A DNA stretch of 64,000 nucleotides from Escherichia phage APECc02: sequence record NC_041869.1. The stretch is one strand, 5' to 3'. Below the pieces are notes generated by a model. The model made no database searches. It saw only the letters and a program-made list of their open reading frames with translations, and had not been told where the DNA came from. The translations under genes were made by a program, and so were the position numbers. Positions 1 through 6,672 of the stretch are shown piece after piece; positions within the stretch are counted from its first letter, which is position 1; each line of letters begins with the position of its first letter.

Positions 1-561
1 CTCCCAGTTAAAATTGATAACTGTGTTGGAGCACCCTACAAGGATAACCATATCATTGCTCGTAAGAGAAGTCAACAGGTCATACATGTCTGTATACTTC
101 GGAGCTACTTCTCCGAAGAACACCACATTAGGCTTAACCCAGGTATACTTTCCTGCGTCTACCTCAGAGTATCCAATGTCCTTAATGACGTCACTTCCTT
201 CATCGTCCTCATAGACTATTTCTGGCAAATACCCGTGGACATGTAAAATATCTTCATGTTTTACACCAGCACGCTCCAGCAAATCATCTACATTGGTGGT
301 AAGGTTGATCACACGACCAGACCAGCGGGAATACCACTCAGCGATCCGAAGATGTGCAAGGTTAGGCTCAACACTGCCTAAAGCTACACGACGTGCATTG
401 TAAAAGTCATGCACCTTATAGTAGTTCTTGGCAAAGGTGTGGATGTTGCACACCTCATCGATGCTGAAATTCTCCCACATTGCAGTGCTACCAGATCGGA
501 AAGTGGGAATACCAGATTCAGCGCTCAAACCAGCACCGGAGATAATAATCAGTCGTCGCAT
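1..561 (-). CDS. Sir2-family NAD-dependent deacylase/NADase-like protein (C-terminus cut by window edge)
   Basis: Reverse ORF running off window start; ATG at 561..559 with GAGGA upstream; translation MRRLIIISGAGLSAESGIPTFR...TTNVDDLLERAG...HVHGYL...VVFFGE...ILVGCSNTV matches the canonical Sir2 motifs (GAGxSxxSGIPxFR, TQNIDxLhxxAG, HG, VVFFGE); no Zn-ribbon cysteines. Confidence 0.7.
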   Translation of the reverse strand, partial: MRRLIIISGAGLSAESGIPTFRSGSTAMWENFSIDEVCNIHTFAKNYYKVHDFYNARRVALGSVEPNLAHLRIAEWYSRWSGRVINLTTNVDDLLERAGVKHEDILHVHGYLPEIVYEDDEGSDVIKDIGYSEVDAGKYTWVKPNVVFFGEVAPKYTDMYDLLTSLTSNDMVILVGCSNTVINFNWE

Positions 562-569
562 AAGTGTCC

Positions 570-920
570 TCAGTAGATGTTTTGTTTAATCTCTATTCCA
601 AACTTTTTAAACGAGTCAGCTGCAAGCATGAATTTACGAGCCGCTGATGGGTTAGAAGTATGCACGAAAATCTTCACGTTGTCAACTACAGGAGGCTTAC
701 CAAATACAAATTTTTCCTCTAGGATGCAGAAGCAATCGTATCCTTCAAAAATTTCTCCCAAGTCGCTGTCAAAATGCCACTCAGAAACTCGTCTATAAAG
801 CTTTCTCTTGTCATTGATGAAATCCATAAACTCAGAAGAGTTCTTCAGCCAAAGAGCATCTTGGAGCCCGTAATTTGACGGATCTCTCAAGTCATCCAGC
901 CACACAATCAACTTCTTCAT
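570..920 (-). CDS. hypothetical protein (116 aa), translationally coupled between RNA ligase and Sir2 genes
   Basis: ORF from track; start overlaps ligase stop by 4 nt; stop 8 nt before Sir2 start; no motif recognised. Confidence 0.5.
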   Translation of the reverse strand: MKKLIVWLDDLRDPSNYGLQDALWLKNSSEFMDFINDKRKLYRRVSEWHFDSDLGEIFEGYDCFCILEEKFVFGKPPVVDNVKIFVHTSNPSAARKFMLAADSFKKFGIEIKQNIY

Positions 921-1852: not shown

Positions 1853-1895
1853 TTTGTCAGTCTATCCTGCCACACAAATAACCTAGTGTCAACAC

Positions 1896-1924
1896 TTGAA
1901 ATTAACAAAACAGTTAGGTATACT
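1896..1924 (+). promoter_or_regulatory. sigma70-like promoter TTGAAA-17-TATACT upstream of kinase gene
   Basis: -35 at 1896-1901, -10 at 1919-1924, in divergent intergenic region. Confidence 0.4.
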
Positions 1925-1952
1925 ATCGTTGAAATTAAAACGGAGTATTACT

Positions 1953-5859: not shown

Positions 5860-5934
5860 GCCCTGTTAGCTTAGTGGATAAAGCAGCGGCCTTCTAAGCC
5901 GTTGACACTGGTTCGAGTCCAGTACGGGGTGCCA
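5860..5934 (+). tRNA. tRNA-Arg (anticodon TCT)
   Basis: Manual cloverleaf fold: acceptor GCCCTGT/ACGGGGT, anticodon loop CTTCTAA, T-loop TTCGAGT, encoded CCA. Confidence 0.8.
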
Positions 5935-5938
5935 AATT

Positions 5939-6025
5939 GGGGAGTTATCCCGTAGAGGTAGCGGTGTAGACTGTAAATCTATTGTCATTGCGACTCGGGT
6001 GGTTCGACTCCACCACTCCCCACCA
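5939..6025 (+). tRNA. tRNA-Tyr (anticodon GTA), long variable arm
   Basis: Acceptor GGGGAGT/ACTCCCC, anticodon loop CTGTAAA, T-loop TTCGACT, encoded CCA. Confidence 0.8.
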
Positions 6026-6139
6026 AATTTACATTTTTAAATGCATAAATCATACAGATAATGGCATTGATATTTATCGTCGTTTATACTAGTCACTAAC
6101 TGCTCGAAAATCAGTGTCATTATCAGTATTGTTTATAAA

Positions 6140-6230
6140 TGAGGGTAGGGAGCAATGGTGCTCAAGCGGTCTTGAAAACCGTCCCGTTGAGGATGACTCG
6201 ATGATGGTTCGATTCCATTACCCTCAGCCA
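6140..6230 (+). tRNA. tRNA-Ser (anticodon TGA), long variable arm
   Basis: Acceptor TGAGGGT/ACCCTCA, anticodon loop CTTGAAA, T-loop TTCGATT, encoded CCA. Confidence 0.7.
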
Positions 6231-6328
6231 TATTGTTGACCTTGTAATTAAGCGAAAGCCGGAAGCAGAACCGGATTATCAAATGTTACAGTCGTCATCG
6301 CCGACTAGCAACATGGTCAACATACTGA

Positions 6329-6427
6329 GCTAGGTAAGCCCTTTGGCAAGGGCGAGGATTTTTAATCCTGAAAATAGACGAGGTAGTCGTTGAATACATA
6401 GGTGGTTCGATTCCATCACCTAGCACC
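6329..6427 (+). tRNA. atypical tRNA-like gene (possible tRNA-Lys TTT variant or pseudogene)
   Basis: Perfect acceptor GCTAGGT/ACCTAGC, D-arm GCCC-TTTGGCAA-GGGC, T-arm GGTGG-TTCGATT-CCATC, but anticodon arm is AGGA-TTTTTAA-TCCT (4-bp stem) or 5-bp stem with 5-nt loop, then about 30-nt extra arm; only CC encoded at 3' end. Confidence 0.35.
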
Positions 6428-6432
6428 TTTTT

Positions 6433-6508
6433 GCTGATGTAGCACAATTGGTAGTGCAATTGATTTGTAATCAATAGGTTGCAGGTTCGAGTCCTGCTAT
6501 CAGCACCA
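6433..6508 (+). tRNA. tRNA-Thr (anticodon TGT)
   Basis: Acceptor GCTGATG/TATCAGC, anticodon loop TTTGTAA, T-loop TTCGAGT, encoded CCA. Confidence 0.8.
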
Positions 6509-6509
6509 T

Positions 6510-6584
6510 GGCCCTGTAGCTGGAAGGTTCAAGCAAGCGACTCATAATCGCCAGACGGTGGTTCAATTCCACCCAGGGCCACCA
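6510..6584 (+). tRNA. tRNA-Met/Ile2 (anticodon CAT)
   Basis: Acceptor GGCCCTG/CAGGGCC, anticodon loop CTCATAA, T-loop TTCAATT, encoded CCA. Confidence 0.75.
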
Positions 6585-6595
6585 AATAATAAATA

Positions 6596-6672
6596 CTCCG
6601 CGTAGCTCAGCTTGGTAGAGCGCCTGATTTGGGATCAGGAGGTCGAGTGTTCGAATCACTCCGTGGAGACCA
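6596..6672 (+). tRNA. tRNA-Pro (anticodon TGG)
   Basis: Acceptor CTCCGCG/CGTGGAG, D-stem GCTC/GAGC, anticodon loop TTTGGGA, T-loop TTCGAAT, encoded CCA. Confidence 0.75.

Follow-up and report, generated by a model that had tools for sequence, protein, structure and literature searches.

The closest described system is the type 2 sirtuin neighbourhood of Iyer, Burroughs, Anantharaman and Aravind (2022, Viruses 14:1977, PMC9503650, section 3.7.3), 'prototyped by Escherichia phage V5 and Proteus phage Mydo', which brings together a sirtuin, a T4-like tRNA ligase, cREC, a nucleotide kinase, a pyrophosphatase of the MazG superfamily and a calcineurin-like phosphoesterase. The sirtuin of this neighbourhood was predicted to remove RNA 2′-phosphates with nicotinamide adenine dinucleotide (NAD+), like KptA/Tpt1 (PMC9503650). 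The subject of the present analysis is a Sir2-family (sirtuin) gene at the left edge of a 64,000 nucleotide (nt) stretch of Escherichia phage APECc02 (NC_041869.1), the whole of which is referred to here as the window, together with the RNA-repair genes around it. The gene set of the window and of the adjoining sequence in its relatives is identical to that of the V5/Mydo neighbourhood (PMC9503650), and nothing substantive differs. The arrangement is already known, being annotated in more than 100 genomes and analysed in print in 2022. The literature found on phage sirtuins and cREC is computational and consists of Aravind-group papers (PMC9503650, PMC7824862); in the literature searched, no report was found in which a phage sirtuin, cREC or a KptA-like sirtuin had been tested biochemically or genetically. 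The feature itself is real and conserved. The sirtuin appears to be a zinc-free member of a phage-specific clade, predicted to be catalytically competent, and it is placed tentatively, at rather less than even confidence, in an accessory module for the repair of RNA (probably tRNA) breaks, with the KptA-like role predicted in PMC9503650.

The 187 amino acid (aa) fragment encoded in the window matches PF02146 (Sir2) with E = 1.1e-27 and 97.6 bits against a cut-off of 24, over profile positions 1-178 of 180, and the Sir2 protein matches phrog_2162 in PHROGs at 2e-108. An earlier sequence-only reading of the window had described an open reading frame (ORF) with every catalytic-core motif of Sir2, and all four of the motifs it quoted were found in the translation of 1-561: GAGLSAESGIPTFR (aa 9-22), TTNVDDLLERAG (aa 88-99), HG (H109-G110) and VVFFGE (aa 146-151). 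The NAD-binding loop of the GAGxSxxxGIPxFR type (G9-R22), N90/D92, H109-G110 and F149-G150-E151 are all present. The zinc-ribbon cysteines, which the same reading had found missing, are indeed absent, and this holds across the phage clade. No Cys lies between H109 and K143 (from HG to KPNV), the only cysteines of the fragment being C38 and C177. The zinc-ribbon segment was located in 115 of 120 homologues (the pattern was unmatched in the other 5) and carries only 0-2 Cys, so that those 115 clade members have no four-cysteine zinc site. On these sequence criteria the window gene is confirmed as a genuine phage-encoded member of the Sir2 family, with the catalytic core intact and the zinc cysteines absent. 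The gene is cut by the window edge, as had been noted: near-identical phages have 253 aa, of which the window carries 187 (74 % of the gene), and the full-length orthologue in phage RudolfGeigy lies at L001:4800-5561.

For conservation, 29 diverse members were aligned, with identities to the reference of 50-61 % and, in one case, 96 %. Invariant among the 29 homologues are S16, G17, F21 and R22; T89, N90, V91 and D92; H109 and G110; K143, P144, N145, V146, F148, F149 and E151; and G176, S178 and N179. The canonical TQNID has become TTNVD clade-wide, the Gln being replaced by an invariant Thr. An F-Y-x-x-R-R motif containing Y54 and R57, in the form FY[NG]xRR, is found in 119 of 120 homologues, and in CobB and SIRT5 an FY-x-x-R occupies the positions of Y54/R57 in the alignment. 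In class III sirtuins the Y-x-x-R pair recognizes succinyl and malonyl groups; in SIRT5 it is Y102/R105. The clade is acidic, with a median isoelectric point (pI) of 5.1. A database search returned 856 Sir2 homologues at E≤1e-5, and by tblastn the gene is present in 1013 of 50,697 phage records, which include V5-like, T5-like and phAPEC8-like phages, Mydovirus and jumbo phages.

Structure prediction, which the sequence-only reading had proposed for both the sirtuin and its 116 aa neighbour, was carried out for each. The AlphaFold2 model of the sirtuin, built on the homologue alignment, has a mean predicted local distance difference test (pLDDT) score of 88.6 and a predicted template modelling (pTM) score of 0.87, and the predicted fold is the two-domain sirtuin fold. 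A three-stranded beta module is kept in the model at the site of the zinc ribbon (strands 110-118, 124-128 and 142-146; pLDDT >90). Foldseek against the PDB places Escherichia coli CobB first (6rxq/1s5p, E ~3e-19, TM up to 0.85), followed by Sir2Af1 and SIRT5, with the matches overall at E ~1e-19 to 1e-15, template modelling (TM) scores of 0.75-0.85 and ~27 % identity. The window Sir2 is of the CobB/SIRT5-like canonical type. Membership of the CobB family proper was considered and rejected. The NCBIfam equivalog models NF040867, NF001755 and NF001752 and the subfamily model NF001753 all score below cut-off (120.3/243, 101.6/320, 90.9/318 and 71.6/221 bits), less than half of every cut-off, and the phage sirtuin is therefore not a CobB orthologue. 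A defence-type SIR2 NADase was likewise rejected: PF13289 (SIR2_2) gives 13.2 bits against a cut-off of 24.5, and no PADLOC family matches the window Sir2 at E≤0.01. The analogy with defence SIR2 effectors that had been drawn from the sequence accordingly falls away.

The 116 aa ORF between the sirtuin and the RNA ligase had been left without a family, but it matches PF20274 (cREC_REC, 'cyclic-phosphate processing receiver domain') with E = 1.7e-13 and 51.4 bits against a cut-off of 27. In 20 homologues, all annotated PF20274, the residues W7, D9, D10, R12 and P14, F50, D51, D53 and G55, H87, T88, S89, N90 and P91, and K96 are invariant, and as read from this alignment they form an acidic pocket like that of receiver domains. 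The AlphaFold2 model is confident (pLDDT 91.9) and has alternating beta and alpha elements. In a fold search of the PDB, receiver domains came top but weakly (Sln1 receiver domain, TM 0.56, E 0.02); no PDB fold matched the model at E≤0.001, and no close relative with a solved structure was found there. Iyer et al. (2021, PMC7824862) gave the family its name and predicted what it does, proposing a metal-independent opening of 2′,3′-cyclic phosphates or of ADP-ribose cyclic phosphate; it is described as uncharacterized in PMC9503650. The partner of the sirtuin is thus a predicted cyclic-phosphate-processing enzyme. In three Sir2 loci (L041:6302-6787, L053:6079-6561 and L055) the slot of cREC, flanked by the kinase and Sir2, is filled by a protein of ~161 aa that belongs to phrog_652 and to no Pfam family; it may stand in for cREC without being homologous to it.

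The other products of the module could also be assigned to families. The RNA ligase matches PF09511 (T4 Rnl1 type) at E = 6.4e-15 and phrog_562 at 4e-66. Against TIGR02308, the model of T4 RnlA, it aligns over positions 32-251 of 373 only, with a score far below cut-off, and it therefore has no recognizable counterpart of the C-terminal third of T4 RnlA. The common annotation 'RNA ligase and tail fiber attachment catalyst' goes back to T4 gp63; for this shorter, 311 aa ligase it is putative. The 136 aa kinase has a P-loop of the PF13671 AAA_33/Zeta-toxin type (2.7e-10), matches phrog_2071 and phrog_505 (polynucleotide kinase) and is annotated as polynucleotide kinase in relatives. The phosphoesterase matches PF12850 (Metallophos_2) and PF00149 (Metallophos) at about 2-4e-06, and phrog_547 at 4e-51. 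Downstream of Sir2, beyond the left edge of the window and known from relatives at 97-98 % identity, is a 237 aa MazG-like gene for a nucleotide pyrophosphohydrolase (phrog_671 in PHROGs, 1e-21), for which Pfam gives only a sub-threshold PRA-PH match (E 0.08). A sequence search of the PDB at E≤0.01 found nothing for the ligase or the kinase, and one uncharacterized Aquifex protein for the phosphoesterase.

Linkage of these genes with the sirtuin was followed in 78 loci, namely 76 Sir2 loci from IMG/VR and two GenBank relatives, the ORFs of which were searched with iterated profiles seeded from the window proteins. In 14 of these loci, on contigs of 90-153 kb and with a Sir2 only 44-57 % identical to the reference, the ligase, kinase, phosphoesterase and MazG-like gene are no more than 7 kb from Sir2; cREC was found in 10 of the 78. 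Mydovirus-like loci have the order ligase-cREC-kinase-Sir2, all on one strand. Since the gene order differs between groups, the association persists through rearrangement. Two further contexts, independent of these, likewise suggest a link with RNA ends. Phage SP15, which is T5-like, encodes a HAD_SAK_2 'Swiss Army Knife' RNA-repair phosphatase domain (5e-20) two genes from Sir2, and the Sir2 gene of a 607-kb phage contig has an Rnl1 ligase gene (2.7e-28) 1.2 kb upstream. In phAPEC8 and in several jumbo or Vibrio phages, the genes next to Sir2 mostly matched no Pfam family and added no further context. A DUF7277-DUF7275 protein is encoded ~2 kb upstream of Sir2 in two otherwise very different phages, phAPEC8 (L080:2793-3734) and a 244.8-kb Vibrio phage contig (L063:4099-4857), with matches at E = 1e-75 and 9e-56.

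Functional data come from transposon-insertion counts for the V5-like phage Bas54, in supplement file 9 of the HIDEN-SEQ preprint (10.1101/2025.11.20.689424). The listed result for the sirtuin gene bas54_0207, which has 50 TA sites, gives mean counts of 405.6 versus 442.6, a log2 fold change of 0.13 and an adjusted p of 1.0, and insertions are likewise tolerated in the genes for cREC, the ligase, the kinase and the phosphoesterase (10.1101/2025.11.20.689424). Because insertions are tolerated in all five genes, the module is dispensable in the Bas54 comparisons listed, for which host conditions are not identified. This fits an accessory, condition-specific role and is as expected for a conditional counter-defence function; it has no bearing on mechanism. 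In the T4-like phage Bas37, listed in the same file, the polynucleotide kinase gene bas37_0055 is significantly depleted of insertions in one host comparison (log2 fold change -1.90, adjusted p 0.000). It follows that genes for RNA-end repair can gain conditional importance on some hosts; such depletion is not visible for the Bas54 module among the results listed.

The course of events adopted here, in which the substrate and every enzymatic step are inferred, is that of the published prediction (PMC9503650). A metal-independent host ribonuclease would cut a tRNA or another RNA, leaving 2′,3′-cyclic phosphate and 5′-OH ends. The cyclic phosphate would be opened by cREC and/or the calcineurin-like phosphoesterase, the 5′-OH end would be phosphorylated by the P-loop kinase, and the break would be sealed by the Rnl1-type ligase. 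The 2′-phosphate left over would then be removed by the sirtuin through NAD+-dependent ADP-ribosyl transfer, as in the unrelated KptA/Tpt1, and cREC and the downstream MazG-like pyrophosphohydrolase could degrade the product of the sirtuin. As outlined in PMC6097658 and PMC6573784, in Tpt1 the 2′-phosphate attacks C1″ of NAD+, after which the ribose O2″ attacks to give a 1″,2″-cyclic product. Deacylation by sirtuins would run through two parallel steps, a carbonyl oxygen taking the place of the phosphate oxygen, and by this analogy an NAD+-dependent removal of 2′-phosphates by a sirtuin is chemically plausible. The sequence-only reading had suggested that the enzyme might act on RNA ends, which agrees with the published prediction (PMC9503650). 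Its overall interpretation is partly supported: the phage Sir2 beside an RNA ligase stands, whereas the defence-effector framing and the partner of unknown family do not. In its boldest form the proposal would make the phage sirtuin a non-homologous replacement of Tpt1/KptA and the first sirtuin with nucleic acid as its physiological substrate, acting when tRNA breaks inflicted by host defences are repaired; the by-product, ADP-ribose cyclic phosphate, would be cleared by cREC and the MazG-like enzyme, and the Y-x-x-R pocket would hold an RNA phosphate and not a succinyl carboxylate. This version is speculative, although a real possibility, and its core has been in print as a prediction since 2022, so that only experimental proof would be new.

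A number of observations weigh against a role in 2′-phosphate removal. A kinase, a metallophosphoesterase and a ligase could heal and seal breaks in the style of T4, with no 2′-phosphate left over. Additionally, KptA is already present in E. coli. Of the phage records, 760 have the ligase and 1013 have Sir2, with very different host spectra: 289 records of Salmonella phages have Sir2 and 14 the ligase, whereas 177 records of Pseudomonas phages have the ligase and fewer than 9 have Sir2. In phAPEC8-like phages both genes are present, ~30 kb apart. Given the different host spectra and this distance, the sirtuin is not an obligate partner of the window-type ligase. The acidity of the clade is mildly unexpected for an RNA-binding enzyme, but not decisive. 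Finally, retention of the class III Y-x-x-R pair in nearly all homologues makes protein deacylation the simplest reading.

The main rival follows from this last point: a CobB/SIRT5-like NAD+-dependent lysine deacylase, perhaps a desuccinylase or deacetylase, which would reset the acylation of host or phage proteins, with the linkage to RNA repair an incidental outcome of early accessory-gene clustering. CobB, Sir2Af and SIRT5, the nearest relatives in sequence and structure, are all protein deacylases, as are the proteins behind the top NCBIfam matches, and the residues required for deacylation chemistry are all kept, along with the acidic-acyl recognition pair Y54-x-x-R57. The gene is present in hundreds of T5-like phages that have no window-type ligase, and the acidic pI gives no sign of RNA binding. 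The deacylase models are nevertheless missed by a wide interval (101.6 versus 320 bits on a CobB equivalog, 120 versus 243 on the best subfamily model), the clade as a whole departs from canonical sirtuins in the loss of the zinc cysteines and in the change from TQNID to TTNVD, and linkage with RNA end-processing recurs in three gene arrangements and is kept through changes of order. A deacylase is on balance judged unlikely, though it is to be taken seriously.

An NAD+-consuming ADP-ribosyltransferase or NADase directed at host functions or at NAD-based immunity, for example by modifying a host protein or altering NAD+/ADP-ribose signalling so as to blunt defence, is what the sequence-only reading had suggested and would draw on the fact that some sirtuins ADP-ribosylate proteins and that sirtuin domains serve as NADases in defence systems (PMC9503650). 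The dispensability of the gene on laboratory hosts, as far as the listed Bas54 comparisons go, is also typical of anti-defence genes, but the same two comparisons, with host conditions not identified, give no depletion of insertions in the sirtuin. Moreover, the protein is not of the defence SIR2 type, as the sub-threshold PF13289 score and the lack of a PADLOC match indicate. A Macro-domain partner, such as accompanies sirtuins that ADP-ribosylate proteins, is absent from the neighbourhoods of the clade (PMC9503650), and no Macro domain was found among the module genes and the selected neighbours scanned. A phage that requires NAD+ would also gain little by depleting it, and this explanation is considered improbable. 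More improbable again is an RNA or nucleotide substrate other than the 2′-phosphate, such as an acyl or toxin-installed group on tRNA, or NAD-capped RNA. The RNA-processing gene context would serve it equally; tRNA clusters are typical of phages bearing the clade, with seven tRNA genes 3.4-4 kb away in the window, and the anion-binding Y-x-x-R pocket could conceivably hold a nucleotide phosphate. Such a substrate is nonetheless pure inference: no known sirtuin acts on one, and the data point to no specific alternative.

The window belongs to an rV5-like phage (Vequintavirus). Its left end, taken as a 4-kb query, is 96.7-97.9 % identical at the nt level to the best-matching rV5-like Escherichia phages. 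A total of 118 phage records match the query, 116 of which cover at least 80 % of it, and the matching Vequintavirus phages include Phage 203/206, rV5_ev147, slur16 and the BASEL phage RudolfGeigy. Among the records matching the 4-kb region, 18 are named 'Campylobacter phage' with Campylobacter jejuni as the host, and are 90-99 % identical to E. coli V5-like phages; these are probably a host mislabel or contamination of the deposits. The features of the left end are listed in Table 1.

Table 1. Features at the left end of the window, with positions in the 64,000 nt stretch
Feature	Position	Strand	Basis and remarks
Sir2/sirtuin gene, N-terminal 187 of 253 codons	1-561	-	ATG 561-559; runs off left window edge; stop-free translation
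Spacer between cREC stop and Sir2 start, 8 nt	562-569	-	Read from sequence
cREC protein, 116 aa	570-920	-	PF20274; ATG overlaps ligase stop
T4 Rnl1 (RnlA)-type RNA ligase, 311 aa	917-1852	-	PF09511, phrog_562; KKNG and LKIKS motifs visible
Divergent intergenic region between leftward ligase-cREC-Sir2 and rightward kinase-phosphoesterase	1853-1952	.	Promoter scan
P-loop kinase, polynucleotide-kinase type, 136 aa	1953-2363	+	PF13671, phrog_2071, phrog_505
Calcineurin-like metallophosphoesterase, 184 aa	2371-2925	+	PF12850, PF00149, phrog_547

The sirtuin had been placed in one leftward string with the RNA ligase, and this is borne out: only the cREC gene lies between them, and no terminator-like site was found on the minus strand between the ligase, cREC and Sir2 genes. 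The 116 aa ORF had also been described as translationally coupled to both neighbours; it overlaps the ligase gene but is only closely spaced to Sir2. The ligase stop and the cREC start overlap as ATGA at 917-920, whereas the cREC stop TGA (570-572) is followed by 8 nt and then by the Sir2 ATG (559-561), a gap with no overlap. A Shine-Dalgarno-like element, GAGGA, spans the stop codon of cREC. Extension to the left, which had been suggested as a check, was made through near-identical relatives and leads from the 253 aa Sir2 to the 237 aa MazG-like gene and then to a GC-rich hairpin terminator, the same terminator being annotated in phage Gotham (ARNold). The plus strand has a promoter-like site, TTGAAA-17-TATACT, at 1896-1924, which phage Gotham carries as a PhagePromoter annotation. 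No convincing consensus promoter was found on the minus strand for the ligase-cREC-Sir2 string; a TTGACA occurs there at about 1893-1888, but with a poor -10 element. The leftward string is presumably co-transcribed.

In V5-like as in Mydovirus-like phages, a gene for an ATP-dependent DNA ligase (L001:2162-3445, L024:7777-9075 and L053:8087-9382) is found downstream of the Sir2/RNA-repair module, at a distance of a few kb at most, and with it the region looks like a general nucleic-acid-repair block. The seven tRNA genes of the window are clustered at 5860-6672. One of them, at 6329-6427 (+), is unusually long (97-99 nt; Rfam tRNA, 35.5 bits); as read from the sequence, its anticodon loop is TTTTTAA (UUU, Lys) and its extra arm measures ~25 nt; ARAGORN names no anticodon for it, and relatives annotate tRNA-Lys. 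This class-II-like tRNA-Lys, 3.4 kb from the RNA-repair module, might be related to tRNA-Lys-targeting host nucleases.

Were the published prediction true, sirtuins would gain a class of non-protein substrates, RNA 2′-phosphates. Phages would then run a yeast-like tRNA repair pathway (cyclic-phosphate opening, kinase, ligase and 2′-phosphate removal) from unrelated parts, presumably to survive tRNA-cutting host defences. The sirtuin family is large among phage records, and its function therefore matters for an understanding of phage counter-defence. The value of the present finding is a directly testable prediction on an already analysed gene cluster.

Compared with known systems, the module resembles tRNA repair by T4 Pnkp and Rnl1, directed against the PrrC anticodon nuclease, and bacterial Pnkp with its calcineurin-type phosphatase, in that an Rnl1-type ligase, a P-loop 5′-kinase and a 3′-end phosphoesterase are likewise present in the window. 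It differs from T4 in that the kinase and the phosphatase are separate small proteins, in the ligase having no match to the C-terminal third of RnlA, and in the addition of the cREC, sirtuin and MazG-like genes. The phosphatase of T4 is also of a different type from the calcineurin type of the window module. With CobB and SIRT5 the phage sirtuin shares the predicted fold and the GAGxS...GIPxFR, N/D, HG, FGE loop and Y-x-x-R elements, whereas its clade lacks the zinc cysteines, has TTNVD for TQNID, is restricted to phages and has RNA-repair genes as neighbours. The defence SIR2 NADases (ThsA, DSR, SIR2-HerA and SIR2-pAgo) have a distantly related NAD-binding Rossmann domain in common with it, but belong to the PF13289 subfamily, which is different from its own. 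The likeness to KptA/Tpt1 would be one of pathway and chemistry: a proposed NAD+-dependent removal of RNA 2′-phosphates alongside a kinase, a cyclic phosphodiesterase and a ligase, with nicotinamide released and the ribose 2″-OH attacking in the second step. KptA/Tpt1 has the ADP-ribosyltransferase fold and the phage protein is a Rossmann-fold sirtuin, and the two are not homologous.

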